25,494 nt of DNA from Candidatus Oleincola secundus (GTDB lineage: Bacteria; Atribacterota; Phoenicimicrobiia; Phoenicimicrobiales; Stramentimicrobiaceae): contig JAGYLS010000020.1 of the NCBI GenBank assembly GCA_018400815.1, forward strand, positions 1-25,494, written 5' to 3'. Shown here piece by piece: positions 862-24,209 of this stretch. The notes beneath the pieces are model-generated. The model was given only the letters and a program-made list of their open reading frames with translations, was not told where the DNA came from and did no database searches. The translations under genes were made by a program, and so were the position numbers. Position 1 is the stretch's first letter. Every line of letters starts with the position of its first letter.

Positions 862-1981
862 TCAAGAAATTTCCCGGTTGCCCAAAACTGATCAGTATGA
901 TATGTATTTTGGACCATGTCATCCCGGATCTGCAAATTTCGGGATTAAGTTAAAACTCAAAGGGGAAAAGATTATTTCTGCTCTTTCAGATCCTGGTTAT
1001 CTCCATCGTGGTTTTGAAAAATTAATGGAATACAGGTTACCACTTCAGAATGCCATGCTTTCTGATCGTATTTGTGTTTTAGAATCGTTGGCCTGGGAGT
1101 TAATTCATGCTGAGGCGATAGAAGAATTAATGGATTTGGAAATTCCGGAAAGGGCTAAATTTATCAGGGTAATTATGGCTGAGCTTTCCCGAATTCAGTC
1201 ACACATGATTTGGTGGGGCGTCTTTTCGGCCGGAACGGGTTTTGATACCGGGTTCAAAATTGCTTTTGGTTATAGAGATTATATTTTGGATTTATTTGCA
1301 GAAATTACCGGAGGTAGGGTATATCCTGCCGGATATATCTGTCCAGGAGGCGTAAGAAGAAATTTTCCTGAAGGAATAGAGGAAAAAATTGAAAAAGTTT
1401 TAGATAAATCAGAGGAATTAGCAAAATACATGGAGGTAGAAAACCCGACATTCAAAGCGCGAACCAAGGGGATTGGAATTTTAAAATTGGACGATGCTAT
1501 CAGTTTAGGGGCAACCGGGCCTGTATTAAGAGCATCCGGGTTAAAAACTGATTTAAGAAAAGATGATCCATATGAAGTATATCAAAAATTTAATTTTGAG
1601 GTTCCGGTTAGAGAAGAAGGAGATATTTATGCCCGTTTTTTGATTGGTTTAGCTGAAGTGAAGGAATCAATTAAGATTGTAAGACAAGCAATAGAAACTT
1701 TGCCCGAAGGGGAATTTATCCTTCCCAAATATAAAAAACCTAAAATCAATATGAAAATCAATGAGGGAGAAGTATATGTCCATAATGAAATCGCTAGAGG
1801 AGAAGGAGGCATGCATGTAATAAGTGATGGCGGCATAAAGCCTTATAGGGTTAAAGTTAGAGGTCCCAGCTTTTCTCATATGATCCCGGTATTGGAATAC
1901 ATTCTAAGGGGGGCGGATATAGCAGATATTCCTGCTATATATTGGAGTTTGAATGTTTGTCCGGCAGATTTAGATCGATAA
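851..1981 (+). CDS. NuoD/MbsL(MbxL)-like catalytic large subunit; not a NiFe-binding hydrogenase
   Basis: GPCHPG, PGYLHRGFEKL, DRICVLE, ELSRIQSH, TGPVLRASG, EIARGE, PYRVKVRGPS and C-terminal NVCPADLDR. ATG at 851 follows AGAGGA (the ORF track start at 830 is the alternative). Confidence 0.88.
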   Translation: MKINQEISRLPKTDQYDMYFGPCHPGSANFGIKLKLKGEKIISALSDPGYLHRGFEKLMEYRLPLQNAMLSDRICVLESLAWELIHAEAIEELMDLEIPERAKFIRVIMAELSRIQSHMIWWGVFSAGTGFDTGFKIAFGYRDYILDLFAEITGGRVYPAGYICPGGVRRNFPEGIEEKIEKVLDKSEELAKYMEVENPTFKARTKGIGILKLDDAISLGATGPVLRASGLKTDLRKDDPYEVYQKFNFEVPVREEGDIYARFLIGLAEVKESIKIVRQAIETLPEGEFILPKYKKPKINMKINEGEVYVHNEIARGEGGMHVISDGGIKPYRVKVRGPSFSHMIPVLEYILRGADIADIPAIYWSLNVCPADLDR

Positions 1982-4026: not shown

Positions 4027-5847
4027 TCAGGCCAAATTTTTACGGTTTTGATAACGTAAATGATGATCCAGAATCTTCTTTCTTAATCGAATACTCTCAG
4101 GGGTTATTTCCACCAATTCATCATCTTGAATAAACTCCAGGGCTTGCTCCAGGGAAAAATCCTGAGGTTTTTCTAAACGCAAGGCTTCATCAGAACCGCT
4201 TGCCCGCATATTGGTAACATGTTTTTTCTTGTTGACATTGACTTCCAGATCATTATCCCTTTTATTTTCTCCTACAATCATTCCCTGATATACTTTGGTT
4301 GCCGGTCCAATGAATAAATTTCCTCTACCCTGGGCATTATAAAGACCATAAGTGCTGGTAATTCCATCTTCAAAGGCAATTAATACTCCCCTGGAGCGTG
4401 AAGGAATATATCCCTTGTAAGGTTGATAGTCAAGGAAAAGATGGTGCATGATCCCTCTGCCTTTTGTTAAAGTAAGTAATTCACTGCGGAAGCCAATTAA
4501 CCCTCTTGCGGGTATTTGAAATTCAAGTCGAAGCTGATCAGAAGAAAAATCCTGCATATTTATTAAATCTGCTTTTCTAATACCGCACATACGCATTACA
4601 GTACTCAAGTATTCTTTTGGTATATCACAAGTCATGAGCTCTATTGGTTCATATTTTTTATCGTCAATATATCGGAAGATAACTTTTGGTTTGGACACCT
4701 GGAATTCATATCCTTCCCTGCGCATCTTTTCAATAAGGATAGAGAGATGCAACTCTCCTCTTCCGGAAACTCGGAAAGTATCCATTGATTCTGTTTCTTC
4801 TACCCGTAGGCTGACATTGGTGTCAATTTCTTTAAAAAGTCGTTCTCTCAGGTGTCGTGAGGTAACAAATTTACCTTGTTGACCGGCAAAAGGACTGTCA
4901 TTGACTTTAAAATCAATGGTAAGAGTAGGTTCATCAATACTAATTTTTGATAGAGCTTCCGGATTTTCCTGGTCGGCAATTGTTTCACCGATATTTGCTT
5001 CATCAATACCAGCCAATGCTATAATTTCCCCCGAATAAGCCTGCTTAGTCTCAATTCTTTCTAAACCTTCAAAAACATAAAGTTTGACTACTTTCCCTTT
5101 GACATGTCTTTTATCCCGCTTGATCAGCGTTACGCTTTCTCCCAACTCGATTTTTCCACGAATAATTAAACCCACAGCTATCTTTCCTACATAATCATCA
5201 TAATCCAGATTGGTTATTAGCATCTGTAAATCACTTTTATTGTCCACAATAGGAGAGGGAACATATTTTACAATAGTCGAAAAGAGCACCTCAAGATTTT
5301 TATCTAAAGAATCCGGTGAAACCCCGGCTAAACCTATTTGGGCTGAGGTGTAGATTACCGGAAAATCAATTTGTTCATCATTGGCACCCAATTCAATGAA
5401 CAAATCATAAATTTCATTTAGAACTTCTTTGGGACGTGCATTTGTGCGGTCTACTTTGTTAATCACCACAATAGGAATTAGGTTTAATTCCATGGATTTA
5501 CGTAAAACAAATCGGGTTTGTGGCATTGGTCCCTCAAAGGCATCAACAATTAAAAGAACTCCGTTAACCATTCTAAGAATTCTTTCCACTTCCCCTCCAA
5601 AATCTGCATGACCCGGAGTATCAACAATATTAATTTTAGTCTTATTCCAATAAACAGAGGCGTTTTTTGACAAAATGGTAATGCCCCTTTCCTGTTCCAT
5701 GTCATTAGAATCCATGATTCTCTCTTTTATTTTCTGGTTTTCCCGGAATGTTCCACTTTGCTTTAACATAGCATCAACCAGAGTTGTCTTGCCATGATCA
5801 ACATGTGCAATCAAGGCAATATTTCTTAAATCATTATATTTCATCAT
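4027..5847 (-). CDS. typA: Translational GTPase TypA/BipA
   Basis: [38 protein letters not shown] and C-terminal [16 protein letters not shown]. Confidence 0.97.
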
Positions 5848-6006: not shown

Positions 6007-6035
6007 TTGACAGAAGGGAATTTTTATGCTAACTT
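6007..6035 (+). promoter_or_regulatory. Sigma70 promoter of the aro operon leader
   Basis: TTGACA (6007-6012)-N17-TAACTT (6030-6035) with TG at 6027-6028, ~35 nt upstream of the leader ORF. Confidence 0.65.
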
Positions 6036-6069
6036 TATTTTTAACAATAAATCGAAAGGGTTAAACCAG

Positions 6070-6156
6070 ATGCTAAGGAAACAAAGCCAAGAAATATTTA
6101 ATTTTAACTATTATTATTTCTATTTTACTGGCGATGTTTATGCCTTAGTATCGTAA
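6070..6156 (+). CDS. Phe/Tyr-rich attenuator leader peptide, 28 aa: MLRKQSQEIFNFNYYYFYFTGDVYALVS
   Basis: ATG 6070 to TAA 6154-6156, preceded by AAAGGG. 8 of 10 consecutive codons (6097-6126) are Phe or Tyr; it lies directly upstream of the Phe/Tyr biosynthesis operon and overlaps an antiterminator arm. Confidence 0.88.
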   Translation: MLRKQSQEIFNFNYYYFYFTGDVYALVS

Positions 6157-6201
6157 CATAAACAGAAATTAGCAAATCAGATACCATAGGCATGAACATC
6201 G
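6132..6201 (+). promoter_or_regulatory. Antiterminator hairpin 1 (segments 2:3)
   Basis: CGATGTTTATGCCT (6132-6145) pairs with AGGCATGAACATCG (6188-6201), 14 bp with one G-U. GTATC (6148-6152) also pairs with GATAC (6180-6184). Excludes terminator 1. Confidence 0.85.
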
Positions 6202-6221
6202 AAGATGCCTATGGTATTTTT
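6181..6221 (+). terminator. Attenuator terminator 1 (segments 3:4)
   Basis: Perfect 13-bp stem ATACCATAGGCAT (6181-6193)/ATGCCTATGGTAT (6205-6217) with a T run at 6217-6221. Confidence 0.85.
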
Positions 6222-6250
6222 ATATGTAGCGACATATAAAGGACTATAGG
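6208..6250 (+). promoter_or_regulatory. Antiterminator hairpin 2 (segments 4:5)
   Basis: CCTATGGT-A-TTTTTATATGT (6208-6227) pairs with ACATATAAAGGACTATAGG (6232-6250): 19 bp, three G-U, one bulge, AGCG loop. Excludes both terminators. Confidence 0.75.
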
Positions 6251-6276
6251 TTTTTTATTACCTGTAGTCTTTTTTT
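6242..6276 (+). terminator. Attenuator terminator 2 (segments 5:6)
   Basis: 10-bp stem GACTATAGGT (6242-6251)/ACCTGTAGTC (6260-6269), one G-U, followed by T7 (6270-6276), ~50 nt before aroH. Confidence 0.8.
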
Positions 6277-6324
6277 ATATCTAGATTTAAATAAAGCAAA
6301 ACAAAATATCAGGGAGATAATTTT

Positions 6325-6711
6325 ATGACAGTAAGAGGTATAAGAGGTGCAACTACAGTTGATGCAAATAGCAAAGAATCTATTATAAGCAGAAGCAAAG
6401 AATTGTTGCTATTATTACAAAAAGCTAATCATTTTAATACAGAAGATATTGTCAGCATATTTTTTAGCATGACATCTGATTTAAACGCTGCCTTCCCGGC
6501 AGAAGCAGCAAGACAATTGGGCTGGAATAAAGTTCCTCTTTTTGGCATGCAAGAATCAGATGTAGAAGGTGGATTAGGAAAATGCATTAGAATTCTTATC
6601 CAAATTAACAGTAATAAAATACAGGATGAAATAAGACATTGTTATTTACACGAAGCCAAGAGGTTAAGGAGAGATTTAGTTGATATAGAAGGGAAGGAAG
6701 AGGAAAAATGA
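6325..6711 (+). CDS. aroH: Chorismate mutase, AroH class
   Basis: VRGIRGATTV, DLNAAFPAEAAR, KCIRILI and HCYLHEAKRLRRDL; GGGAG RBS. Confidence 0.95.
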   Translation: MTVRGIRGATTVDANSKESIISRSKELLLLLQKANHFNTEDIVSIFFSMTSDLNAAFPAEAARQLGWNKVPLFGMQESDVEGGLGKCIRILIQINSNKIQDEIRHCYLHEAKRLRRDLVDIEGKEEEK

Positions 6712-7742
6712 TTTTAGTAATGGACAGTCGCTCCAGCGATACAGACTTAAATACCATATCTGAAAAATTAAAAAATTTAGGTTTTGAATTGGAAGTTAGT
6801 AAAGGGAAAGAAAAAATAATAGTAGGAATAATTGGAGATACCAGAAAATTATTAAATTTTCCTTTTCATTCTTATCCAGGCGTAATCGATGTTTTGAAAG
6901 TTTTAAAACCCTACAAATTAGCTAGCAGAGAATTTAAAGAATTACCAACCGTTATTAAAATTGGTGATGCCTCTATTGGTGGAAAAGAAATAGCCCTTAT
7001 GGCGGGTCCTTGCTCTGTTGAAGATGAAGAACAAATTTATGAGGCTTCCCAGGGTTTAAGCAAGCTTGGAATAAAGATTCTGCGTGGAGGAGCATTTAAG
7101 CCCAGGAGTTCACCTTACAGCTTTCAGGGATTAGGCGAAAGAGGATTAAAAATGATGAGTGAAGCAGCAAAAAAATTTGGTTTACTGGTAATTACTGAAG
7201 TTATGTCTATTGAACAAATAGATATAATTGCACCTTTTGCAGATATCCTTCAAGTAGGTGCCAGAAATATGCAGAACTTCATGCTTTTAAAGGAATTAGG
7301 AAAAATCAAAAAACCAGTCATGTTAAAAAGAGGGCTGTCGTCGACTGTTGAAGAATTATTGCTATCAGCTGAGTATATTATGTCCGGTGGAAACAAAAAA
7401 GTTATCCTCTGTGAAAGAGGGATAAGGACATTTGAATCCTATACCCGCAATACCCTGGATCTAAGCGTAGTCCCGGCTATCAAGACATTAAGCCATTTGC
7501 CAATTATTGTCGATCCTAGTCATTCAACCGGTAGGAAGGAGTTGGTATGTCCTATGTCTAAAGCAGCCATAGCCGCAGGAGCTGATGGTCTGATTATCGA
7601 AGTTCATCCGAATCCAAAAATGGCTTTGTGTGATGGAGCACAATCGTTGGATTTAAATGACTTTGGAAATCTAATAAAAGAAACAGAATTGGTAGCAAAA
7701 GCCGTCGGAAGATCTTTAAATAATATCCAGGTCACTGTTTAG
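6708..7742 (+). CDS. aroF: DAHP synthase type I-beta with N-terminal ACT-like regulatory domain (copy 1)
   Basis: [47 protein letters not shown] and EVHPNP..ALCDGAQSL; ATGA overlap with aroH. Confidence 0.96.
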   Translation: MILVMDSRSSDTDLNTISEKLKNLGFELEVSKGKEKIIVGIIGDTRKLLNFPFHSYPGVIDVLKVLKPYKLASREFKELPTVIKIGDASIGGKEIALMAGPCSVEDEEQIYEASQGLSKLGIKILRGGAFKPRSSPYSFQGLGERGLKMMSEAAKKFGLLVITEVMSIEQIDIIAPFADILQVGARNMQNFMLLKELGKIKKPVMLKRGLSSTVEELLLSAEYIMSGGNKKVILCERGIRTFESYTRNTLDLSVVPAIKTLSHLPIIVDPSHSTGRKELVCPMSKAAIAAGADGLIIEVHPNPKMALCDGAQSLDLNDFGNLIKETELVAKAVGRSLNNIQVTV

Positions 7743-7823
7743 CAACAAGATTCCAGAATATATATTTTATAAATTTTAAAATAATGAAAAAATGACTTAC
7801 TAAAGATAAAAGGAGAAAAAAGA

Positions 7824-8861
7824 ATGGTTATAGTAATGGATGGTAAGGTAAATGAAGGTCATATTAATAATCTTAGTGACAAATTGAAAAGTATGGGTTT
7901 TAAGCTGCAGATGATTAAAGGTGAAGATAAAACCGTAATAGGTATTATCGGAGATACCAGAAAATTATTATCTTTCCCTTTTTATTCATATTATGGTGTA
8001 GTTGATGTATTAAAAGTCTCCAAACCTTACAAGCTTACCAGTAGAGAATTCAGAGAACTTTCAACCATTATACGGATTAACGAAGTAACCATTGGTGGTC
8101 AAGAAGCCGTCCTTATGGCTGGACCTTGTGCTGTTGAAAATGAAGAACAAATTGATATAATTGCCCGAAAAGTAAGTGCTATCGGCGCAAGGGTCTTACG
8201 TGGGGGAGCATTTAAGCCCAGAACTTCTCCTTACAGCTTTCAGGGATTAGGCGAAAGAGGACTTAAAATGATGAGTGAAGCAGCAAAAAAATATGGCCTG
8301 TTAGTCATTACTGAAGTGATGGCTATTGAGCAAATTGATATGATTGCCAATTATGCAGATATTATTCAAATAGGTGCCAGAAATATGCAGAATTTCATGC
8401 TCTTAAAAGAAATAGGGAAGATAAAAAAACCAGCCATGTTAAAAAGGGGAATGTCAGCTACTATAGAGGAATTTTTATTATCAGCAGAATATATCTTGTC
8501 AGGAGGAAATAAAGAAGTCATACTGTGTGAAAGAGGAATTCGTACTTTTGAAAATTATACGCGTAACACTTTAGATTTAAGTGCTATTCCGGCGATAAAA
8601 GAGTTAAGCCATTTACCGATAATTGTTGATCCGAGCCATGCCACCGGGAGAAAAGAGTTAGTCGGACCTATGTCTAAAGCAGCTATTGCAGCAGGAGCTG
8701 ACGGTTTAATTATTGAAGTTCATCCTAATCCGGAAGAGGCATTGATGATGGCGCACAATCCCTGGAATTAAGTGATTTTGGAACGTTTGATATCAGAATT
8801 GGAACAAGTAGCCCGTGCAGTCGGTAGGAAACATGCATCTTGGTTATACCTCTCTGTTTAG
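7824..8861 (+). CDS. aroF: DAHP synthase type I-beta with ACT-like domain (copy 2); 3' end broken by two indels in this sequence
   Basis: Same motifs as copy 1. After EEAL the expected [11 protein letters not shown] and [16 protein letters not shown] read across a -1 near 8745 and a +1 near 8780, ending at TAG 8859-8861. The ORF track stops at 8771. Confidence 0.9.
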
Positions 8862-8876
8862 AAAGGAACTCTTAAA

Positions 8877-10160
8877 TTGGATAGAGCTATTGAAGGAAAC
8901 AAAAAGGCCAATCCGAGGAAGCATAACAGTGCTCCAGTGATAAATCAATCACACATCGTGCGATTATTTTGAACTCTATTGCCAGGAGAATCAAAATCCG
9001 CTATTTTCTGGATGGTTTGGATTGCAGAACACCTTGTTATGTATGCAGGCTTTGGGTGCTAACATTGAAAAAGCAAGTCCTTTTTTATTAAAAATAAAAG
9101 GAAAAGGTCTTGACGGTTTAAAAGTACCAGAAAATGTTCTTGATGTGGGCAATCCGGAACTACTATGATTATTATCCGGTTGCTAGCTGGACAAAATTTT
9201 TGTAGTGTTTTAGATGGGGATGATTCAATAAGGAAAAGACCGATGAAAAGGATTATTCTACCACTCTCTAATGAATGGCCAAATAAAAGGATTATATCAT
9301 ACCAATTTTGCTCCTTTAAATATAATCGGTAAATCCCTGCAAGGAATTGACTATACCTTACCGGTAGCTAGTGCTCAGGTTAAATTGCTATTCTCCTGGC
9401 AGGCTTTATATGCCAAAGGAGAAACAGTATAAGGGAAAAACAGACCACAAGAGACCATACGGAACGAATGCTGGCCTTGATGAAGGCGAATATTCAATCT
9501 TTCCCTGATGATCAAAAATCCGGTTAATTCCGGGAAAAGAATTAAAGAGTATAGATATTGATATTCCGGGAGACATATCCTCAGCTGCCTATTTTATAGC
9601 AGCGGGATGTGTTAGGAAGGGTCAGAAATAATCATAAGAAATGTGGGAATAAATCCTACCCGACCGGGTTTTGGGAAGTATGAAAGAGATGTGGGGCTAA
9701 TATTCAAATGCTTAATCAAAAAGATATTTCTAACGAACCCAGGGCTGACATTCTTATTAAAGGGGCTTTATTGAAAGGGATTCAGATTGATAAAAAAATT
9801 ATTGCCAATATTATTGATGAATTGCCCTTAGTGGCAGTTATTGCAACCTTAGCGCAGGGTAGAACTATTGTAAAGGATGCACAGGAACTCAGGGTGAAAG
9901 AAAGTGACCGAATTAAAGCTATTGTAGAAGGATTATCCAGAATGGGGGCAAATATTATTGAAAATAATGATGGTTTTGAAATATCAGGACCGACTGGCTT
10001 GTCCGGAAATTCGGTAAACAGTTTTGGTGACCATCGAATTGCTATGTCTCTGGCCGTAGCGGCTTCCTATGCAGAAGGCAAAACAGTGATCCGGGAAACA
10101 GAATGTATAGATATTTCCTATCCGGATTTTATGCCTACTTATCAAAAAATAATGGAATAA
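8877..10160 (+). pseudogene. aroA: EPSP synthase (class II) with many frameshifts in the 5' two-thirds; probably an intact gene with sequence errors
   Basis: AAAGGA RBS and TTG at 8877. Motifs DKSITHRA, GN(S)GTT, RKRPMKR, PVASAQVK, RDHTERM, PGDISSAAYF and VGINPTR occur in shifting frames. The intact C-terminal ORF 9708-10160 has IDELP, ELRVKESDRI and GDHRIAM. Confidence 0.88.
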
Positions 10161-10177
10161 ATTATTAAGGAGAAAAA

Positions 10178-11047
10178 ATGAATCCTATGACTTTGACAAT
10201 TGGTTTGCTGGGTGAACATCTTGAAAATAGCCTTTCTCCATTGATACACCGCAATTTTATTTGTTATTATTCTTTAAATTATTGTTATTTGCCTTTTCAG
10301 ATAAAGACCGAAAATTTGGAAAAGGCAATATTTGGGGCAAAGGCATTGGGGATTCATGGGCTGAATGTCACAATACCTTTTAAAGAAAAGGCTATGGGGT
10401 TCATGGATAATATTGACCCGGCAGCAGAAACAATCGGAGCAATTAATACCATTGTCAGAAAAAATGAAAAGCTATATGGATATAATACAGACTGGAACGG
10501 TTTTAGGGAGCCACTGAAAAAAAAGATGAAGACTAAATTAATCAACAAGAGAGCGGTAGTTTTAGGGGCAGGTGGAGCCGCAAGGTCAGTTATCTTTGCC
10601 CTGGCAGAAGAAGGGTGTCCGGTGATATCAATCTTTAACAGAAGCAAAGATCGTGCCTTAGAGGTAAAAAGAAATTTCAAGAATATTTTCCCCCAATGTG
10701 AAATAAGAACATTCTCTTTTCAAAGAAAAAATTTGCAGGGAGAAATTGATAATGTAGATTTGCTCATAAATACCACTCCCCTGGGCAGCTGGTATTATCC
10801 GGGACAAAACCCCCTACCGGAAGGAATTAAACTTTCATCTAAAGCAATTGTCTATGATCTAATCTATTGTCCGGATAGAACTCCATTGCTGAGGTGGGCA
10901 GAAATAAACGGTAATAGGATATTAAATGGTAAAGAAATGCTGGTATATCAGGCAGCGGAGAGTTTTCATTTATGGACTGGTCTTTATCCTGATCAGGAAA
11001 TAATAACTAAAATATTGAGCAAGATAAGGAAAAAGGAAAATTTGTAA
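10178..11047 (+). CDS. aroE: Shikimate dehydrogenase
   Basis: SLSPLIH, GLNVTIPFKE, GAINT, GYNTD, GAGGAA, INTTPLG and MLVYQA. Confidence 0.96.
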   Translation: MNPMTLTIGLLGEHLENSLSPLIHRNFICYYSLNYCYLPFQIKTENLEKAIFGAKALGIHGLNVTIPFKEKAMGFMDNIDPAAETIGAINTIVRKNEKLYGYNTDWNGFREPLKKKMKTKLINKRAVVLGAGGAARSVIFALAEEGCPVISIFNRSKDRALEVKRNFKNIFPQCEIRTFSFQRKNLQGEIDNVDLLINTTPLGSWYYPGQNPLPEGIKLSSKAIVYDLIYCPDRTPLLRWAEINGNRILNGKEMLVYQAAESFHLWTGLYPDQEIITKILSKIRKKENL

Positions 11048-11067
11048 TTTTATAAAGAGGTATATCT

Positions 11068-12243
11068 ATGGTGTTACGTTTTTTAGATGCCGGAGAATCA
11101 CACGGAAAATGTCTGCTAGGTATTATTGAGGGGTTTCCTCAAGGATTCCCGTTAAGTGAAGAAAAGATTAATCAGGAATTGAAGAGAAGACAGGGGGGAT
11201 ATGGAAGAGGAGATCGGATGAAAATCGAACAGGACCGCATTGATATTTTGTCCGGGATAACTTCAGGTAAATCAATAGGCAGTCCCATAGGCTTAATGAT
11301 AAAGAATAAAGATTGGGAAAATAAGAATCCTAAAAATCAGGAAGAACTGACTATTCCTCGTCCCGGTCATGCTGATCTGGCCGGAGCAATCAAATATAGT
11401 TTGGATAATTATCGGTCAATACTTGAAAGAGCCAGCGCCAGAAAAACAGCGATGCGGGTAGCAATAGGTTCTGTCGGGCAGCAATTGCTGGATTATTTTT
11501 CAATAAATTCTTATAGCCATGTTCTAAGAATTGGCAGTATTTCAATTCATAATCAGATAGTAAAAGAAACAGAAAAAGAGGGAAAAATCAAAACAATCAA
11601 AGAAAAGATTAGCCGGTCGCCAGTTTACAGCTTAGACCCGGAAATTTCTGAAGAGATGTGTCGGGAAATTGATCAGGCAAAAAAGGAAGGAGATTCACTG
11701 GGAGGACAGTTTGAAATTGTAGTGAGAAATGTTCCGGCAGGGCTTGGAAGCCATGTGTTTTGGGATAGAAAAATTGATACGCGCATTGCCGGAGCTTTAA
11801 TGAGTATTCCCAGTGTAAAAGCAGTAGAAATAGGCGAAGGGATAAAAGGTTCAGAAAAAAAGGGCTCTAAAGTTCAAGATCCTATCTATTATCAAATGGG
11901 GCAAGAGAAAGATAATTACCCTGGTTATTATCGCAAGAAGAATTGGGCAGGTGGCATAGAGGGAGGAATAACCAACGGAGAGAATATTGTTGTACGTGTT
12001 TATGTAAAACCTATTCCTACTTTATTCAAACCTCTTCCATCAGTTGACATAAGAACCAAGAAAAAGACAAAGGCAAATTACCAAAGGTCAGATACCTGCG
12101 TTGTTCCGGCGGTTAGCGTCGTCGGGGAAGCAGTTGTGAATTGGGAGCTTGCAGTTGCCTTTACAGAAAAATTTAGCGGAGATTCTATGGATGAAATAGA
12201 GTCTAATTATAAGTGTTATCAGGAAAGGTCAAAAAAGTGCTGA
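11068..12243 (+). CDS. aroC: Chorismate synthase
   Basis: AGESHG, RRQGGYGRG, PRPGHADL, ERASAR, GGIEGGITNG and RSDTCVVP. Confidence 0.97.
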   Translation: MVLRFLDAGESHGKCLLGIIEGFPQGFPLSEEKINQELKRRQGGYGRGDRMKIEQDRIDILSGITSGKSIGSPIGLMIKNKDWENKNPKNQEELTIPRPGHADLAGAIKYSLDNYRSILERASARKTAMRVAIGSVGQQLLDYFSINSYSHVLRIGSISIHNQIVKETEKEGKIKTIKEKISRSPVYSLDPEISEEMCREIDQAKKEGDSLGGQFEIVVRNVPAGLGSHVFWDRKIDTRIAGALMSIPSVKAVEIGEGIKGSEKKGSKVQDPIYYQMGQEKDNYPGYYRKKNWAGGIEGGITNGENIVVRVYVKPIPTLFKPLPSVDIRTKKKTKANYQRSDTCVVPAVSVVGEAVVNWELAVAFTEKFSGDSMDEIESNYKCYQERSKKC

Positions 12244-12782
12244 GAAAGAATATTTTTATAACCGGATTTATGGGTACCGGTAAGAGCACGGTAGCCATGG
12301 CACTTGCCGATAAAATGAATAAAAAATTTACAGATATGGATATTTTGATTGAGAAGAAGGAAGGGAAGTCAATTACTGACATCTTTAACGATGAGGGAGA
12401 GGGAGAATCCTATTTTCGAAAAGTTGAAAGAGAAGTCCTGAAAGAAATTATAAAACAAAATGATTTAGTTATTGCAACCGGAGGAGGGAGTCTTCTTAAT
12501 GATGAAAATTATCAGTTAGCGCGGAAAAATAGTGCAATTATACTTCTTCAGGCAAAGCCGGAAGTTATATTTAAGCGATTAAAGGAAGATAGTGAACGTC
12601 CTCTATTGTCAGAAAAAAATAAATTGGATAGAATTAAAAGTCTGATGGAACAAAGAAAAAATAAATACAGCCGTTTTGAATATTCTGTTGATACATCTAA
12701 TCTTACTGTTGCACAGGTGGTTGATGAAATAATAAAAATATACCGGAGAGAATATGATGAAGACAATATCTCTGAAATTTGA
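12237..12782 (+). CDS. aroK: Shikimate kinase
   Basis: GFMGTGKST P-loop, GESYFR, ATGGG and RPLL; GTG at 12237 follows AGGAAAGG. Confidence 0.95.
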   Translation: MLRKNIFITGFMGTGKSTVAMALADKMNKKFTDMDILIEKKEGKSITDIFNDEGEGESYFRKVEREVLKEIIKQNDLVIATGGGSLLNDENYQLARKNSAIILLQAKPEVIFKRLKEDSERPLLSEKNKLDRIKSLMEQRKNKYSRFEYSVDTSNLTVAQVVDEIIKIYRREYDEDNISEI

Positions 12783-13881
12783 AAAAAAATATAATTGCAA
12801 TATGTTTATTGGAAAAGGCATTTTATCAGATATTGACACCTACCTTATCCCTCTATTGCCGGGAAAGCAGGTAGTATTAGTTACTAATTCGCTGATAAAA
12901 CAACTCTATGGTAATAAAATTGTTAAAATTCTTTCCCAAAAGGGCATTCTTGTTCATATTATTGAAGTTCCTGACGGAGAAAAAAGTAAATCTTTCTCTG
13001 GTGCTGAAAAAATTTATGATAAATTGTTGCAATTTAAATCAGATCGTTCTACTGCATTAGTTGCTCTGGGTGGTGGCGTGATTGGTGATTTGGCTGGGTT
13101 CGTCGCTGCTACCTTTATGAGAGGCATTCCTTTGGTGCATATTCCCACTACGCTTTTAGCTCAAATTGACAGCAGTATAGGAGGAAAAGTAGCCATTGAT
13201 CACTCAAGGGCAAAAAATATTGTAGGCAGTTTTTATCAGCCTATTGCTAACTTGGTTGATTCTGTAGTTTTAGAAAGTCTACCACTATCTCATTTGAAAA
13301 ACGGAATAGCTGAAGCCATCAAAATTGCTATTATTAGCTCTCCTTCATTTTTTAACTGGATAGATCAGCATATGGACCCTTTATTGCAGAAGGAGAAGGA
13401 TGTATTAGACTTTCTGGTAAGCCGGGCAGCACAATTAAAAATCAGTATTATTTTGCGGGATCCATGGGAAAGGAATCAGCGACATTTACTGAATTTAGGA
13501 CACAGTATAGGGCATGCACTGGAGACAGTGAGTGGTTATAGCTCTATTACCCATGGTGAGGCAGTTGCGATTGGCACTGTACTGGAAACTCGCATAGCTT
13601 ATCATAAGAAATTATGTAGCTGGGAAGATAAAGAAAAAATTGAAAATATTATCAGTAAATTAGATATTCTATCGGGTTTAAATCTATTGCAGATTAATCC
13701 GGAGGAATGCTGGGATACCATTCTTTTGGATAAAAAAAATAAAGATGGGAATATCCGCTTTGTTTTACCTGAGAAAATAGGAAAGGTTGAATTATTTCAG
13801 CCTATTCTTAAAGAAGATGTGGACTATGCTTTCAATTCCCTCAAGGAGAGTGAAAGAGAGGAGGAGAACTTTGAAAATTAG
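12754..13881 (+). CDS. aroB: 3-dehydroquinate synthase
   Basis: DGEKSKS, GGGVIGDLAGF, PTTLLAQIDSSIGGK, LNLGHSIGHALE, HGEAVAIG and DKK. Confidence 0.97.
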   Translation: MMKTISLKFEKKYNCNMFIGKGILSDIDTYLIPLLPGKQVVLVTNSLIKQLYGNKIVKILSQKGILVHIIEVPDGEKSKSFSGAEKIYDKLLQFKSDRSTALVALGGGVIGDLAGFVAATFMRGIPLVHIPTTLLAQIDSSIGGKVAIDHSRAKNIVGSFYQPIANLVDSVVLESLPLSHLKNGIAEAIKIAIISSPSFFNWIDQHMDPLLQKEKDVLDFLVSRAAQLKISIILRDPWERNQRHLLNLGHSIGHALETVSGYSSITHGEAVAIGTVLETRIAYHKKLCSWEDKEKIENIISKLDILSGLNLLQINPEECWDTILLDKKNKDGNIRFVLPEKIGKVELFQPILKEDVDYAFNSLKESEREEENFEN

Positions 13882-14323
13882 TGTTATTCATGGCCCGAAT
13901 TTAAATCGTTTGGGACAGAGAAAAAAAGAACATTATGGGGTGCTTACTCTGGCAAAAATAAACAACAGTTTAGAAAAAAAGGCTTCTAAAATGAATATCC
14001 AGTTGGAAATTATGCAATCAAACCACGAAGGAGAAATCATTGATTTTATTCAGATGGTTTCAGAAAAGACAGATGGCATCATCATTAATCCGGGGGCTTT
14101 TACTCATTACAGTTATGCCATAAGGGATGCTTTAGAGGATTGTTTGCTTCCGGTTATTGAAGTGCATTTATCTAATATTTTTGCCCGTGAAGAATTTCGT
14201 GCCAGGTCAGTCACAGCCCAGGCTTGTGCTGGCCAGATTGCCGGACTGGGATACCAAGGCTATTTATTGGCAATTGAAGGACTTCAGTCTTTAATTAAAG
14301 AGCGCAAACCTAAAAAAACTTAA
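13871..14323 (+). CDS. aroQ: Type II 3-dehydroquinate dehydratase
   Basis: HGPNLNRLG, QSNHEG, NPGAFTHYSYAIRDA and EVHLSNIFAREEFR; TTG at 13871 follows GAGGAG. Confidence 0.96.
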   Translation: MKISVIHGPNLNRLGQRKKEHYGVLTLAKINNSLEKKASKMNIQLEIMQSNHEGEIIDFIQMVSEKTDGIIINPGAFTHYSYAIRDALEDCLLPVIEVHLSNIFAREEFRARSVTAQACAGQIAGLGYQGYLLAIEGLQSLIKERKPKKT

Positions 14324-14337
14324 TGAGGAGGCTTAGA

Positions 14338-15228
14338 ATGAGTGAAGAAAGTGAATTTACCGGGTTTAAAAAGATTACTATAATCGGTTGCGGATTAATT
14401 GGCGGCTCCATTGGCTTGGCATTAAAGAAAAACTCCTATTCCGGTGAAATTACAGGTATTGACCGGAAAGAAGTAATTGAAAAAGCAATTTATTCGGGTG
14501 CTATTGATTGGGGAACTGAAGAAATAGAAAAAGGGGTAAAAAATGCAAGTATGGTTATTCTAGCTACCCCGGTTCAGGAAATTATAAGATTACTGTCCAA
14601 AATAAAACCGTTTTTACCGGAATATTGTTTGATTACTGATACCGGGAGTACAAAAAAGGAAATTATTAAAGAGGCATGGAAAGTATATTCAGATAAATAT
14701 GATTTTATAGGCGGTCACCCTATGGCTGGTTTGGAAAAGGGTGGAATAGAATACGCTGATCCATATTTATTTTCCGGGAAACCCTACATTACAGTTGTCG
14801 GAAGAGAAAATACTAATTTAGCTGGTTTAAAAATGTCTACTTTTTTAAATTTCATTAATGCCATGGAGATAAGATTGAATGCTTCAGAGCATGATCGTAT
14901 TATTGCCCTGGTCAGTCATGTTCCACAATTGATTGCCGTTATTATGACCAACCTGTTCGGATCTCTGGTGCAGGAAGGTTATGATGAAAAATGCCTCAAA
15001 ATTGGCGGGAATGCATTCAACGAAATGACCAGAGTTGCCAGCAGCCCTTTTTCCATGTGGAAAGATATCTATCAAACGAACAGTAAATGGACAATAAATT
15101 ATATTAATGATTTAGAAGATATGTTAGGTCAGGTTAAAGAAAAAATTGCAAAAAATCCGCATAAGTTGGAAGAAGATTTTAAAAAAGCCAGTTATTATAA
15201 AGAAAAAATGTCACAGAAGACCGAATGA
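14338..15228 (+). CDS. tyrA: Prephenate/arogenate dehydrogenase
   Basis: GCGLIGGS Rossmann motif, TDTGSTK, GGHPMAG, EHDRIIALVSHVPQ and TRVASS; ATG at 14338 follows GAGGAGG. Confidence 0.94.
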   Translation: MSEESEFTGFKKITIIGCGLIGGSIGLALKKNSYSGEITGIDRKEVIEKAIYSGAIDWGTEEIEKGVKNASMVILATPVQEIIRLLSKIKPFLPEYCLITDTGSTKKEIIKEAWKVYSDKYDFIGGHPMAGLEKGGIEYADPYLFSGKPYITVVGRENTNLAGLKMSTFLNFINAMEIRLNASEHDRIIALVSHVPQLIAVIMTNLFGSLVQEGYDEKCLKIGGNAFNEMTRVASSPFSMWKDIYQTNSKWTINYINDLEDMLGQVKEKIAKNPHKLEEDFKKASYYKEKMSQKTE

Positions 15229-15285
15229 TTTTATGATAGGTAAGCTATTAAAAAGATAATTAACAATTAAAAGAGGTATGATTTT

Positions 15286-16191
15286 ATGGATGAAAAGGAT
15301 GATTATCACTATAAAAAAAATAAAACAGTAGCGCTACAGGGAGAAATTGGTTCATTCAGTGAAATGGCTGCCTTGCAATATTTTGGTTCTGCTGCAGAGA
15401 TGTTATCCTGCAGTAGTTTTAACCAGGTTAGTGAAACAGTTAAACAGGGCAAGGCTGATTATGCTATTTTACCAATTGAGAATTCTCAGACAGGAGGAAT
15501 TAACAATGTGCATGATTTATTATTGAGCGAAAATCTATTTGCAATCGGTGAAGTTATATTAAAAATTGAACATTGTTTAATTGCTCATCAGGACACTAAA
15601 CCGGAGCAAATTGAAAAAATTTATTCTCATCCACAGGCGCTAGCTCAATGTGAAAGATACTTGATAAAAAATTTCTCTCACTGTCAAATTATTCCAGTAT
15701 ATGATACGGCAGGGAGTGTCAAACAGATTAAGGAATCCAGGGAGTTAAAAGCAGCAGGAATTGCCAGTCGAAGAGCTGCTACTTATTATGAGATGAATAT
15801 CTTAGAAAATAGTATTGAAGACAATCCTTCCAATTATACACGTTTTTTAGTTTTTTACCCTGAAATACTGACCAATAAATTAAATAACAAAACATCTATT
15901 ATTTTTGCGGTAGTCAGTGTTCCCGGAGCTATCCATAAATGCTTAAGAGAATTTGCAATTCGTGGCATTAACTTAAGTAGATTAGAATCAAGGCCTAGCA
16001 GGATGAAACCATGGGAATATATTTTTTATATGGATTTTGAGAATGGGCTGCAGGAAAGTGTTACCCAGGAAGCATTGAAGGCACTAAGAGAGTTTACTAC
16101 TTTTATTAAAATTATTGGTACATATCAATCACATTCAAGTACGCTTGATTCTGCCCAAAGGCACCTTCGGGAATTGACTAAAAACAAATAG
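15286..16191 (+). CDS. pheA: Prephenate dehydratase with C-terminal ACT domain
   Basis: QGEIGSFSEMAA, PIENS, SHPQALAQC, NYTRF and INLSRLESRP; no fused chorismate mutase domain. Confidence 0.95.
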   Translation: MDEKDDYHYKKNKTVALQGEIGSFSEMAALQYFGSAAEMLSCSSFNQVSETVKQGKADYAILPIENSQTGGINNVHDLLLSENLFAIGEVILKIEHCLIAHQDTKPEQIEKIYSHPQALAQCERYLIKNFSHCQIIPVYDTAGSVKQIKESRELKAAGIASRRAATYYEMNILENSIEDNPSNYTRFLVFYPEILTNKLNNKTSIIFAVVSVPGAIHKCLREFAIRGINLSRLESRPSRMKPWEYIFYMDFENGLQESVTQEALKALREFTTFIKIIGTYQSHSSTLDSAQRHLRELTKNK

Positions 16192-20749: not shown

Positions 20750-20828
20750 ATATCTTGTAATTGATGGTTTTTTATAATTGTAATTGAATTAAATATCTCC
20801 AAAAATATTGGTGATTGGAGGCAAAGTC

Positions 20829-21134
20829 ATGGATCATTATCCTCGCTGGAAAAACGAAATGACTGATCAATTATTTAAAGCGATACTGAGTTTAGATAAT
20901 ATTGATGAATGTTATCAGTTTTTTGAAGACGTAGCAACTATAAATGAAATTAAAGAGCTTAGTCAACGGCTGGAAGTTGCCCGGATGCTTAGTGAAGGTT
21001 TTATCTATGAGGATATTGTACAGAAAACCGGGGCCAGCTCTGCAACAGTCAGTCGGGTAAAAAAGTGTTTAAACTATGGTGCTGATGGCTATCAGCTAAT
21101 ACTGAAAAAAATTAAACAAAAGAATAAACTATAA
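20829..21134 (+). CDS. yerC: YerC/YecD-family TrpR-like repressor (HisR-like)
   Basis: DQLFKAILSL, ECYQFFEDVATINE, SQRLEVARML and TGASSATVSRVKKCLNYG; ATG at 20829 follows GGAGG. Confidence 0.92.
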   Translation: MDHYPRWKNEMTDQLFKAILSLDNIDECYQFFEDVATINEIKELSQRLEVARMLSEGFIYEDIVQKTGASSATVSRVKKCLNYGADGYQLILKKIKQKNKL

Positions 21135-21156
21135 ATAAAATAATGGAGGAACTTTG

Positions 21157-21930
21157 ATGAATAGAAATAAACGAATCATTTCAGCTTTACTTTGTTCTGT
21201 ATTTTTCTTTATGTTGTTAGGGCTACCTGGTATTTCTGCAGAAAAAGAACTCTATATTAACGGAATTGATGCAGATTACCCCCCACATGCCTACATTGAT
21301 GAACAAGGTAACCCGGCAGGTTTTGATGTAGAAGCATTGGATTGGATTGCTGAGGAAATGGGATTTGAGGTAACTCATCAGCCTACTGCCTGGGATGGCA
21401 TTGTATCAAGTCTTTTAGCAAAAAAAATTGATATGGTTTTTTCCGGCATGAGCATTACCGAAGAGAGAAAAGAAAAAGTGAATTTTACAATGCCTTATTG
21501 GTCAATTGACCAGGCAATAAGTGTGAGAAACGATTCTGATTTAAATGCTATTGAAATATTCATGGGTGATTATACAGTAGGAACCCAACGCGGATGCACT
21601 GCTGCTATGTGGATTGAAGATAATTTAATCAATCAGGATCTGTTTCCCAAAGATAGTCTCAAACTGTATGAAGGATTTTCTTTGGCAGTACAGGATCTTT
21701 TAAATGGAAGAGTTGATGCTGCAATGATGGATGATGTAATGGTGGAAGACGCAATTCGCAAAGGAATGGATATTAAAGTTATAGGGACTATAAAAACTGG
21801 CGAAGAGTATGGTGTAGCAGTTAGAAAAGAAGACACAGAACTTTTGGAATTACTCAATGAAGGAATTAATCGTATTATGAATTCACCGAAATGGGATGAA
21901 TTAAAGGCCAAATATTTCCAGGCTCAGTAA
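21157..21930 (+). CDS. Polar amino-acid ABC transporter substrate-binding protein (family 3)
   Basis: Signal peptide (ISA-EK), GIDADYPP, GFDVE, AWDGIV, SGMSITEERK and YGVAVRK; GGAGGA RBS. Confidence 0.93.
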   Translation: MNRNKRIISALLCSVFFFMLLGLPGISAEKELYINGIDADYPPHAYIDEQGNPAGFDVEALDWIAEEMGFEVTHQPTAWDGIVSSLLAKKIDMVFSGMSITEERKEKVNFTMPYWSIDQAISVRNDSDLNAIEIFMGDYTVGTQRGCTAAMWIEDNLINQDLFPKDSLKLYEGFSLAVQDLLNGRVDAAMMDDVMVEDAIRKGMDIKVIGTIKTGEEYGVAVRKEDTELLELLNEGINRIMNSPKWDELKAKYFQAQ

Positions 21931-21981
21931 ATTCCAAATAAAAAAATTATATAAAAATATCAAAATAGAATTAATGAATGA

Positions 21982-22013
21982 CGGGGATGTAAACTAAGAA
22001 GTTTATATCCCCG
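21982..22013 (+). terminator. Intercistronic stem-loop after the binding-protein gene (stabiliser or partial terminator)
   Basis: 14-bp stem CGGGGATGTAAACT/AGTTTATATCCCCG, one G-U, AAGA loop, weak U tail. Confidence 0.65.
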
Positions 22014-22081
22014 GTTTCATGTAAATGTAATGCTAGTTAAAAATTGTTAAATAGCTAAACAAAAGGGATAAGATATAAGTT

Positions 22082-22747
22082 ATGGAAAATTTTATTGTTA
22101 TTTATCAGGCCCTTCCTTTTTTACTTCAGGGCATAATAACAACCTTAGGCTTAGTGCTAAGTGCGCTTTTTTTAGGTTTTATTATAGGTGTGCCTTTATC
22201 GGTAGGACAGGTTTTTGGCTCTTCTTGGACGAAAAAATTTATCGGTATTTATATCTGGTTTTTTAGGGGTTTACCAATACTGGTTTTATTATTTCTTTTT
22301 TATTATGGTTTATTTAACATGATAGGATTGAATTTATCTGCTTTTGTGGCAGCGGTATTAGTATTGGGTTTGCGCAGCTCTGCCTATCAGGCACAGATTT
22401 TTAGAGGAAGTATCCAGTCCTTGGGACAGGGGCAACTGTTGGCAGCCCAATCTCTTGGAATGAGTACAGGCAAGGCAATATGGAATATCATTTTACCGCA
22501 AGCATTAAGGCTGTCAATTCCCGGTTGGTCTAATGAATACCCGGCAATGTTAACAGAATCTGCCGTAACTTATGCTATTGGCGTGATGGAGGTGTTGACT
22601 CGGGGAAACTTTATTGCATCCAGAACCTATAAGCCTATGCCTATTTACCTGACCTGCGCAATAATTTTTTTAATCTTGTCCTATTCAGGAATGAAAATAT
22701 TACATATTTTAGAGGAGAAGGTCAGAATTCCCGGTTTTGAGGAATGA
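22082..22747 (+). CDS. Polar amino-acid ABC transporter permease
   Basis: FFRGLPILV, SAYQAQIFRGSI, GQLLAAQSLGM and ILPQALR. Confidence 0.93.
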   Translation: MENFIVIYQALPFLLQGIITTLGLVLSALFLGFIIGVPLSVGQVFGSSWTKKFIGIYIWFFRGLPILVLLFLFYYGLFNMIGLNLSAFVAAVLVLGLRSSAYQAQIFRGSIQSLGQGQLLAAQSLGMSTGKAIWNIILPQALRLSIPGWSNEYPAMLTESAVTYAIGVMEVLTRGNFIASRTYKPMPIYLTCAIIFLILSYSGMKILHILEEKVRIPGFEE

Positions 22748-23538
22748 AAGGACCAGAAGGAATGAATCAAAAAAAAGAATTAATATTACGAATTAAAGAT
22801 ATTCATAAATCCTTTGGAGGAAAAGAGGTTTTAAAAGGAATCTCTTTTGATGTTTACAAAGGAGAAACAAAGGTAATCATCGGGCCCTCGGGGATGGGGA
22901 AAAGTACCCTTTTAAGATGTATAAACCAGCTTACTTTTCCTGACCAGGGCACGATATGGTTAAGAGACCAGGAGGTAACTCACCATAATTTAAGAGAGAT
23001 TAATCTTTTCCGTCAAAAAATAGGTATGGTTTTTCAGGATTTTAATCTTTTTGACCACCTTGATGCTGTAAGAAATGTTGAAATTGCCCTGATTAAAGTA
23101 AAAGGAATGAAAAAAGAGGAAGCCAGAGAAAAAGCTATGCATGAGTTAAAGAAAGTTGGCTTAGGAAAACAGGCATCGCTTTATCCGGCTCAACTATCCG
23201 GTGGCCAAAAACAGCGGGTTTCAATTGCCCGGGCATTGGCTATGGATCCGGAAGTCATGCTTTTTGACGAACCTACCTCTGCACTTGATCCGGAACTCAT
23301 TGGTGAGGTACTAGGTGTCATGCAAAAATTAGCCAGAGAAGGCATGACTATGGTTGTGATTACCCATGAAATGGGTTTTGCGCGTTCAGTGGCTGATGAA
23401 ATAATTTTTTTGGAAAAGGGCAAGCTATTGGAAAGCGGACCACCGGAAATATTATTTTACCAGCCTAAATATGAGCGAACCCGGAGATTTTTATTCAAAT
23501 TAACCGAGTTATATGGTGATTTAAATGGGAAAAAATAA
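22744..23538 (+). CDS. Polar amino-acid ABC transporter ATP-binding protein (GlnQ/HisP family)
   Basis: GPSGMGKST, LSGGQKQR, FDEPTSALDPE and THEMGFA. Confidence 0.95.
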   Translation: MKGPEGMNQKKELILRIKDIHKSFGGKEVLKGISFDVYKGETKVIIGPSGMGKSTLLRCINQLTFPDQGTIWLRDQEVTHHNLREINLFRQKIGMVFQDFNLFDHLDAVRNVEIALIKVKGMKKEEAREKAMHELKKVGLGKQASLYPAQLSGGQKQRVSIARALAMDPEVMLFDEPTSALDPELIGEVLGVMQKLAREGMTMVVITHEMGFARSVADEIIFLEKGKLLESGPPEILFYQPKYERTRRFLFKLTELYGDLNGKK

Positions 23539-24209
23539 TGATTAACCTAGACTTTTTTTTAGAAATATTATTTCCTTCTTTATTAGAAGGATTAATAATG
23601 ACTATGCAATTGATTTGCTGGTCAATCCCAATTGGATTAGTAATGGGAGTTATTATTGCTATTGGCCGGGTTTATGGTAATGTGCTGGTATCTTTTTTCA
23701 GTAAAGCATACATTATATTTTTTAGAGGGACACCTTTGCTGATTTTACTTTTTATTTTGTATTATGGTTTCCCTTCTATTGGTATTTATTTATCACCCTT
23801 TGTTGCTGCTGTTATCGGGTTTGTTCTTTGCAGTAGCTCTTATCATGCAGAATATATTCGTGGCGCTATTCAATCTGTAAGAAGCGGACAGGTATTGGCA
23901 GCCCAGGCACTGGGAATGAGTAAATTGAGTGCCGTTTTTAATATTGTTCTTCCCCAGGCCTTACGTAGAGCCATCCCCGGTTGCTCTAATGAGATTATCT
24001 ATCTAATAAAATATTCTTCATTAGCCTTCATGGTAACCTGTATTGAATTAACGGGGGCAGGCAAGATTGTAGCCTCTCGATATTTTACTTATACCGAAGT
24101 TTTTTTAGTAATCGGAGCTATCTATCTAATCATTGTTTCCCTGGCTACTAAACTTTTAAATATTTTAGAAGAAAGGGCGTCTTTCCCCGGATGGGAGAAT
24201 AGAAAGTAA
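23538..24209 (+). CDS. Polar amino-acid ABC transporter permease
   Basis: FFRGTPLL, SYHAEYIRGAI, GQVLAAQALGM, VLPQALR and IKYSSL. Confidence 0.93.
   Translation: MINLDFFLEILFPSLLEGLIMTMQLICWSIPIGLVMGVIIAIGRVYGNVLVSFFSKAYIIFFRGTPLLILLFILYYGFPSIGIYLSPFVAAVIGFVLCSSSYHAEYIRGAIQSVRSGQVLAAQALGMSKLSAVFNIVLPQALRRAIPGCSNEIIYLIKYSSLAFMVTCIELTGAGKIVASRYFTYTEVFLVIGAIYLIIVSLATKLLNILEERASFPGWENRK

Follow-up and report, generated by a model that had tools for sequence, protein, structure and literature searches.

What governs transcription of the 11-gene aromatic amino acid operon in Candidatus Oleincola secundus, an uncultured member of the Atribacterota, and does its leader carry one terminator or two? 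The locus lies in a 25,494-nt stretch of the forward strand of contig JAGYLS010000020.1, which was analysed as a whole and is referred to here as the window. A preliminary description, made from the sequence, had proposed two back-to-back terminators switched by two chained antiterminators. Our analysis favours, with a probability of about 85%, a six-segment Phe/Tyr leader with one terminator, acting as a ribosome-mediated transcription attenuator of the aro-tyrA-pheA operon (Table 1).

The operon, its promoter and the leader ORF

The operon is about 10 kb long, as had been described, and its gene order is the same in genomes G001 and G009. Its aroA is frameshifted in this assembly. Of 39 gap bases relative to the same-genus G001, 27 fall at 8746-9692, a stretch in which the second aroF is frameshifted at its end and aroA over most of its length, whereas the corresponding frames of G001 and G009 are open; an assembly error is likely. 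Elsewhere in the window, a YerC/YecD TrpR-like regulator (20808-21134) lies directly 5' of an amino-acid ABC transporter and an aminotransferase-like gene (21154-25237), which together are possibly a HisR-type regulon. A stand-alone protein encoded at 2616-3026 matches the N-terminal editing part of archaeal-type threonyl-tRNA synthetase.

The predicted promoter has a TG at 6027-6028 and its -10 hexamer at 6030-6035, from which transcription would start near 6043. TTGACA, the 17-nt spacer and the hexamer are found in all 39 untruncated homologues, 37 of which also have the TG. A consensus promoter scan did not return 6007-6035 among its matches.

The regulatory block of the leader ORF, F-N-F-N-Y-Y-Y-F-Y-F at 6097-6126, contains four Phe and four Tyr codons in ten successive codons. 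The reading frame is kept in 39 of the 40 homologues examined, the other one being frameshifted, and all 98 scored metagenome leaders have six to ten Phe/Tyr codons and no Trp in the 14 codons before a conserved D-V. The start codon moves among homologues, while the frame and the Phe/Tyr codons stay conserved. In leaders of a second family (L008, L013, L015 and others), the start has moved and the ATG-like segment 1 contains the Shine-Dalgarno (SD) sequence for a GTG start; helix 1:2 would therefore hide the leader's own ribosome-binding site.

Paralogous leaders occur upstream of lone aroF genes (L056, L057, L058, L060 and L107) and are Phe-biased, with five Phe and one or two Tyr codons in four of them; the aroH leaders of the same family are mostly Tyr-biased (two or three Phe, four to six Tyr). 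It is possible that the paralogues have been split into Phe-tuned and Tyr-tuned copies. In the trp operons of relatives, a T-box is located upstream of trpE (L240, L241, L245 and L247; RF00230 over its cut-off in two of the four), with two T-box/terminator modules in series. The trpA gene was searched for in G000 and G001 and not found, which fits the lack of Trp codons in the aro leader.

Table 1. Features of the leader, its surroundings and the predicted eight-segment relatives
Feature	Position	Strand	Description
typA	4027-5847	-	divergent from the aro operon; the leader element lies between the two
Predicted sigma70-type promoter	6007-6035	+	-35 TTGACA at 6007-6012, 17-nt spacer, extended -10
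Segment 1	6069-6096	+	covers the leader start codon; pairs with 6115-6152 (helix 1:2, protector)
Leader ORF P0001	6070-6156	+	28 codons; stop at 6154
Segment 2	6129-6152	+	last codons of the leader ORF; partner is 1 or 3
Segment 3	6180-6201	+	partner is 2 or 4
Segment 4	6205-6227	+	6205-6218 closes hairpin 3:4 (relay); 6208-6227 pairs with segment 5
Segment 5	6232-6251	+	partner is 4 (antiterminator) or 6 (terminator)
Conserved T6 in terminator loop	6251-6256	+	directly 3' of helix 4:5; predicted NusG pause motif
Segment 6 and T7	6260-6276	+	3' arm and U-tract of intrinsic terminator 5:6
Regulated operon	6325-16191	+	aroH, aroF, aroF, aroA, aroE, aroC, aroK, aroB, aroQ, tyrA, pheA
Predicted eight-segment leaders (L253, L255-L258, L260-L265, L267-L269, L271-L280, L282, L283)	about 1500-1700		6:7 and 7:8; clostridial

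Six segments and five alternative helices

The four pairings of the preliminary description were all found as written: hairpin 3:4 (6181-6193:6205-6217, 13 bp), helix 2:3 (6132-6145:6188-6201, 14 bp with one G.U, duplex -20.8 kcal/mol), helix 4:5 (6208-6227:6232-6250, 19 bp with A6216 bulged and three G.U) and hairpin 5:6 (6242-6251:6260-6269, 10 bp, followed by T7 at 6270-6276). Helix 2:3 is extended by 6148-6152:6180-6184. The two states of the preliminary description, 3:4 with 5:6 and 2:3 with 4:5, are real as pairings and omit helix 1:2 (-26.6 kcal/mol). There are therefore six segments, with 1:2, 3:4 and 5:6 in the OFF state and 2:3 and 4:5 in the ON state; an inner hairpin between segments 4 and 5 (6219-6226:6233-6240) forms in both. 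The fold has a z of -8.05, and none of 200 shuffles was as stable. Among the 372 terminator candidates of the genome, only three, including two from this leader, have a 5' arm that an upstream competitor can capture with -18 kcal/mol or better. Inspection of the 372 by eye gave no convincing case of another leader-peptide attenuator.

All five helices covary in alignment A1, which holds 41 leaders from 37 genomes, out of 52 genomes of the same order, and leaves out one degenerate (L048) and two truncated leaders (L023 and L055). Pairing reaches 94.9% in the OFF helices, where 15 of 36 pairs show changes on both sides, and 96.3% in the ON helices (2:3 and the 4:5 core), where 7 of 26 do. The 4:5 core reaches 99.0% (3 of 7 pairs changed on both sides), helix 2:3 97.7% over 14 pairs, and the outer 10 pairs of helix 1:2 90.3% (2 pairs with changes on both sides). 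The paired percentages of the OFF helices, the ON helices and the 4:5 core lie above those of 500 shuffles and of slid controls (22-51%). A thread of six nucleotides, one in each segment (6073, 6148, 6184, 6214, 6244 and 6267), reads C-G-C-G-C-G in 16 leaders and T-A-T-A-T-A in 12. This swap counts as one change on the tree; of the helices, 4:5 alone connects the positions in segments 1-4 with those in segments 5 and 6. Three further, separate double changes in 4:5 (in G021, G051 and G043b) come from two additional threads. Kin are not independent, and most of the covariation splits along two clades.

Helix 4:5 closes in all 41 homologues and in all 98 scorable metagenome leaders. The latter were collected with a pattern that did not include segment 5, giving 105 distinct loci, of which four chance matches and three loci cut by contig ends were left out. 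The conservation of this pairing had been proposed as a check on the chained switch, and as 4:5 is conserved, the relay is taken to be real. The resemblance of arms 3 and 5, which had been read as a hint of duplication, does not support that origin: the two arms are identical in 38-41 of 41 leaders at the positions that pair with arm 4, and in only 0-1 of 41 at four of the next five positions in the 3' direction, so the likeness is forced by the shared pairing with arm 4.

A pattern scan of 185,579 genomes returned 40 stretches, 34 of which are labelled Atribacterota or its named genera. Of the other six, three are chance matches, two are genuine leaders from bins assigned to other taxa, which are likely misbinned, and one, labelled 'bacterium', has the same sequence as the leader of a relative. 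The named genera belong to class JS1, and a DNA search did not find the leader in any of nine genomes of the phylum's other class. Some leaders have departed from the common arrangement: L010 (G023) has a one-base frameshift 3' of the regulatory codons, L048 (G008) is degenerate and precedes a pheA remnant and glnS, L059 (G027) has a transposase inserted between terminator and aroH, and L041 (G003) sits upstream of an aroE-like ORF.

A probable relay hairpin and single distal terminator

It was initially proposed that hairpin 3:4 is itself a regulated terminator, so that OFF transcripts would meet two terminators in series and leak would be multiplied down. The stem is strong (13-14 bp, -18 to -22 kcal/mol), its tail in the window is TTTTTATA, and helix 2:3 would antiterminate it. 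The T-score after 3:4 has a median of 4.74, and 37 of the 41 homologues pass a lenient B. subtilis terminator rule, the coefficients of which, except lambda, are those we take the rule to have. By this rule, the median score is 1.85 for 3:4 and 4.09 for 5:6; lambda was 0.144, as given in the consulted part of its source (PMC1187862).

Conservation of the tail argues against this proposal. The reported T5 (6217-6221) includes the last base of the stem; four T follow 6217. It arises from a C-to-T change at 6218 that is absent in 36 of the 41 homologues. A T-run of at least five follows 3:4 in only 4/41 homologues and 5/98 metagenome leaders, and follows 5:6 in 36/41 and 83/98. Hairpin 3:4 is usually followed by C-TTTATAT, in which only three T are consecutive (36/41 and 90/98), and these T bases can be explained by their pairing with the A-run of segment 5 in the inner hairpin. 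The 3:4 loop is 11 nt, none of 33 clostridial look-alikes (see below) has even four T after 3:4, and a terminator pattern scan matched 5:6 and not 3:4.

The RNA evidence consists of metatranscriptome contigs of relatives from four of 12 runs; contigs of this kind give no information on ends or levels. In two runs they extend across the 3:4 site, including 6221-6226, where partial termination would not show in contigs. One relative's contig (one contig, one study) spans 6095-6276 and stops at the last T of terminator 5:6. Its word depth is 45, whereas coding contigs from that run have 2.4-5.5, and it hints weakly at an attenuated transcript end at 6276. Another run gave contigs covering 6065-6246 and 6220-6368, the latter of which could be DNA.

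We therefore consider a second regulated terminator at 3:4 improbable. As 37 of the 41 homologues pass the lenient rule, weak termination or pausing may occur there, and hairpin 3:4 is best described as mainly a relay, like C:D in the his leader, and at most a weak terminator or pause site.

A putative NusG pause site in the terminator loop

The loop of terminator 5:6 holds a T-run, on which the preliminary description was silent. A run of at least five T (T5-7) stands directly after 4:5 in 37 of the 41 homologues and 87 of the 98 metagenome leaders, and strict TTNTTT immediately 3' of 4:5 in 30/41 and 74/98; genome-wide, a loop T-run is found in 10 of 372 terminator candidates. NusG-dependent pauses have been described with a -11TTNTTT-6 motif and a hairpin 11 nt from the 3' end (PMC9963633), and in B. 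subtilis riboswitches such pauses precede the terminator/antiterminator decision (PMC11602163), according to the parts of these sources that were consulted. Placing 6251-6256 at -11 to -6 puts the pause at 6261, with the base of 4:5 lying 11 nt upstream, and the genome's own NusG has a W-Y-x-x-R-N-T-P-G-V-T motif and a Y11 equivalent. Motif position, hairpin spacing and NusG contact residues are thus all present in sequence, and the best reading of the loop T-run is a predicted NusG-stimulated pause site near 6261.

Helix 4:5 followed by U6 also has the geometry of a terminator. In 38 of the 41 homologues it passes the lenient rule, which would mean less read-through in the ON state, and the T-run after 4:5 resembles a terminator tail more than the run after 3:4 does. 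This could make 4:5 a leaky terminator capping ON-state expression, or the T-run could be neutral, and in neither case would there be a NusG pause. The 19-bp stem is closed by two C-G pairs, with the T5-7 next to it in the 37/41 and 87/98 leaders given above, and the spacing fits release 7-9 nt after the hairpin, as stated in the consulted part of one source (PMC11602163). However, such a terminator would act on the very state that needs read-through, the spacing fits a NusG pause too (PMC9963633, from the part consulted), and NusG has the contact residues. In addition, G019 does without a loop T-run, as do the clostridial look-alikes (0/33), and the RNA contig 6220-6368, which could be DNA, crosses both sites. 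A leaky or neutral T-run is unlikely in our view, and the predicted pause is retained in the mechanism below.

Folding and proposed mechanism

As first proposed, the position of the ribosome would be relayed by 2:3 to 4:5, which would block the distal terminator; the covariation and constrained folding agree with this. When 6043-6120 or 6043-6126 was blocked, 2:3 formed with a probability of 0.99 and 4:5 with 0.99-1.0 in transcripts ending at 6250-6262. With a ribosome blocked at the stop codon, 3:4 reached 0.99 and 5:6 1.0, and with no ribosome 1:2, 3:4 and 5:6 formed. At full length, 5:6 wins in every scenario, therefore the ON state must be a kinetic trap. When only the footprint of a ribosome stalled at Tyr14 or Tyr16 was blocked, the equilibrium model still gave the OFF state, with the outer part of 1:2 closed; that segment 1 is occluded is therefore assumed in the mechanism.

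The leader combines an ORF rich in end-product codons, an intrinsic terminator before the first gene and, with segment 1 occluded, an antiterminator exclusive of it. From the observed ORF, five covarying helices, terminator and operon, we infer the following ribosome-dependent steps. When charged tRNA-Phe and tRNA-Tyr are plentiful, the ribosome would reach the stop at 6154 and cover segment 2, which 1:2 would hold afterwards. With segment 2 covered, 3:4 would form and leave segment 5 free, and 5:6 with its U7 would end the transcript near 6276. When tRNA-Phe or tRNA-Tyr is short, the ribosome would stall at 6097-6126, and segment 1 could be kept off segment 2 by the stalled ribosome through steric hindrance, or by a second ribosome loading at the start codon. 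Helix 2:3 would then form, segment 4 would capture segment 5 while segment 6 is still within the polymerase, and transcription would continue into aroH. The predicted NusG-stimulated pause, at about 6261, would have 4:5 as its hairpin and could provide time for that helix to close. In the second family, where segment 1 comprises the SD and GTG, formation of 1:2 would also stop re-initiation.

Relation to known attenuators

The preliminary description held that classical attenuators have four segments and one terminator. This is wrong for the enteric his attenuator (hisL), in which AB, CD and EF alternate with BC and DE, as described in the part of the source consulted (PMC10989985). Going by the same part, the two leaders share six segments, five alternative helices, two chained antiterminating helices and one distal terminator, therefore the six-segment relay has the his topology and is not a new design. 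Unlike enteric his, the window leader has Phe/Tyr rather than His codons, precedes an aro rather than a his operon, gives no match to the Rfam His_leader (RF00514) and has a conserved T-run in the terminator loop. The start codon, or the SD and GTG in the second family, lies within its segment 1, in place of the regulatory codons. The window leader is predicted to work like the enteric his leader and is not a member of that family.

Candidate His attenuators of Firmicutes, reported by Ashniev et al. in 2022 (PMC9413887), share with the window leader a leader ORF, an attenuator hairpin, a terminator hairpin and a potential antiterminator, and in our alignment their segments are collinear with those of the window leader. 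They differ in having His codons and his operons and in being described as separate lineage-specific elements; the consulted part of that paper describes no 2:3-to-4:5 relay, codon swapping or 7:8.

Phe (and Tyr) leader codons before aromatic genes are shared by Corynebacterium aroR-aroF, E. coli pheL and pheST and Acholeplasma uORFC-13-1. A Phe/Tyr leader before aroF is known in Corynebacterium and has been proposed in Acholeplasma (PMC11802643, PMC8632094). As far as the consulted parts of these sources go, Corynebacterium aroR responds to Phe and not to Tyr, and these leaders precede a single gene or a short operon, whereas the window leader precedes the whole shikimate-to-Phe/Tyr route. 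No sequence match of the window leader to aroR-aroF, pheL, pheST or uORFC-13-1 was found. Searches of the open-access literature found no report on attenuators of Atribacterota, none on the present leader family and none on tandem terminators in leader-peptide attenuators.

The trpB motif, clostridial leaders and eight-segment relays

No Rfam family matched the window at the gathering threshold. In an E-value scan, the trpB motif RF04312 matched 6183-6281 over its full length, although below threshold (42.2 of 59 bits, E 6e-5). RF04312 is an orphan riboswitch candidate (SRC-39-1) for which the authors could not exclude a classic attenuator (PMC11109978). As described in the consulted part of that paper, the motif consists of a hairpin, an antiterminator in its right shoulder and a terminator, equivalent to window segments 3-6, and is reported from Firmicutes and Fusobacteria; its model has no ORF and no segments 1-2. 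The window leader has this two-hairpin layout, the second hairpin being the terminator and the antiterminator lying in the right shoulder of P1. No match above the RF04312 cut-off (59 bits) was found in 61 related genomes, in five plasmid loci or in 151 + 151 + 41 + 117 + 3 genomes (best 55.8 bits; strict filters, overlapping samples). A whole-genome search of G000 with a first-look filter did not match the window leader, its best other match being 29.8 bits.

Searching clostridial genomes with RF04312 gave 33 loci (L251-L283) at 43-56 bits, none above the cut-off. All 33 have an SD-led ORF of 15-30 codons ending at most 50 nt from the first hairpin, compared with 48 of 6600 shuffles. The codon runs in these ORFs are Phe/Tyr in 19, Leu in five and His in two, with no run in seven by the rule used, and the ORFs downstream (32 scanned) encode SNF-family or BrnQ-family transporters, ABC components and HisZ-type proteins. 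The His-type members match the candidate attenuators of Ashniev et al., L252 reading like their Lutispora entry in the part consulted (PMC9413887).

These loci share the 2:3/3:4/4:5/5:6 chain. Helix 2:3 is found in 32/33 loci, segment 2 pairs upstream in 28/33, and 4:5 is found in 33/33, where segment 5 was chosen by a pattern fitted to the same loci; 2:3 and 4:5 covary (93.2% paired, 12 of 25 pairs). Relative to the leader stop, the order of segments and helices is the same in these Firmicutes leaders and in the window leader, with which the clostridial ones are collinear, with shared cores. Sequence-only homology searches (nhmmer) between the window leader and the Firmicutes leaders found nothing in either direction. 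Model R1, built from Firmicutes only, has the window leader as its top match within the window (24 bits, E 0.008) and gives 17-41 bits to 24 related leaders, but opposite strands score as well. Enterococcus L288, which passes the model RF02863 (sRNA_2410) at 89.5 vs 61 bits, combines a Phe/Tyr leader ORF with this chain. Both L287:2661-2910 (Streptococcus suis) and L288:2159-2345 (Enterococcus gallinarum) have Phe/Tyr ORFs and the chain before ABC binding proteins; in L287, hairpin 5:6 has no U-tract and a later hairpin has one.

The match to a model described as a strong riboswitch candidate (42.2 bits) could also mean that a small-molecule aptamer or an RNA-binding protein operates the switch, with no role for the ORF, as has been suggested for the trpB motif. 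This is very improbable, given that the ORF frame and Phe/Tyr codons are conserved though the start codon moves, that the conserved bases are those of the alternative helices, that no Rfam family reaches its cut-off within the window, and that RF04312-like loci themselves carry leader ORFs (the 33/33 above). Ribosome-mediated attenuation by the leader ORF is the preferred reading.

In 26 of the 33 clostridial loci, a segment 7 that pairs with segment 6 (6:7) and a further hairpin 7:8 are added, and in 21 of the 26 both hairpins are followed by at least five T in the first eight bases (a few tails were imperfectly cut). An unopposed 7:8 would silence the gene, therefore 6:7 would have to be a second antiterminator. 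The idea of a two-terminator domino in the preliminary description is not supported at 3:4/5:6 of the window and is predicted to hold at 5:6/7:8 in these clostridial leaders. Within the family of the window leader, only 2 of 41 leaders gave a 6:7 duplex at a level reached by no more than 5 of 100 shuffles. On an Ilyobacter polytropus plasmid (L285:1570-1760), a short ORF with three adjacent Trp codons is followed, as judged by eye, by two serial terminator hairpins with complementary inner arms, and a PF04392-type ABC binding protein is encoded downstream; it is possibly another two-terminator relay, in Fusobacteria.

Taken jointly, these observations allow a tentative reading, to which we give somewhat less than even odds. 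The window leader would be the Atribacterota branch of a portable chassis of Firmicutes and Fusobacteria, in which the sensed amino acid is swapped via the leader codons. RF04312 and sRNA_2410 would be fragments of this chassis rather than a riboswitch and an sRNA, and many clostridia would use eight segments where the Atribacterota use six and a NusG pause. New here, as sequence-based predictions, are the conserved T5-7 terminator loop placed like a NusG pause motif, the link from RF04312 to the clostridial leaders and the eight-segment relatives.

Significance of the leader

By itself, the window leader would represent the classical his type of attenuator in an uncultured phylum, sensing two amino acids on behalf of an entire pathway; the covariation across its six segments is unusually clean. 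The link to RF04312, through the leader ORF, offers a direct and cheap test of a published orphan riboswitch candidate with >900 members, and the chassis link would unify several separately described elements.

If the chassis reading is true, the sensed amino acid (Phe/Tyr, Leu or His) was changed by swapping leader codons, and the Atribacterota branch times its decision by a NusG pause written into the terminator loop. In the eight-segment leaders, one stalled ribosome would disarm two serial terminators, as 4:5 blocks 5:6 and the freed segment 6 takes segment 7, blocking 7:8. Natural relays of this kind would show how attenuators gain dynamic range by added modules, and they could be used as tight, codon-programmable amino-acid sensors.
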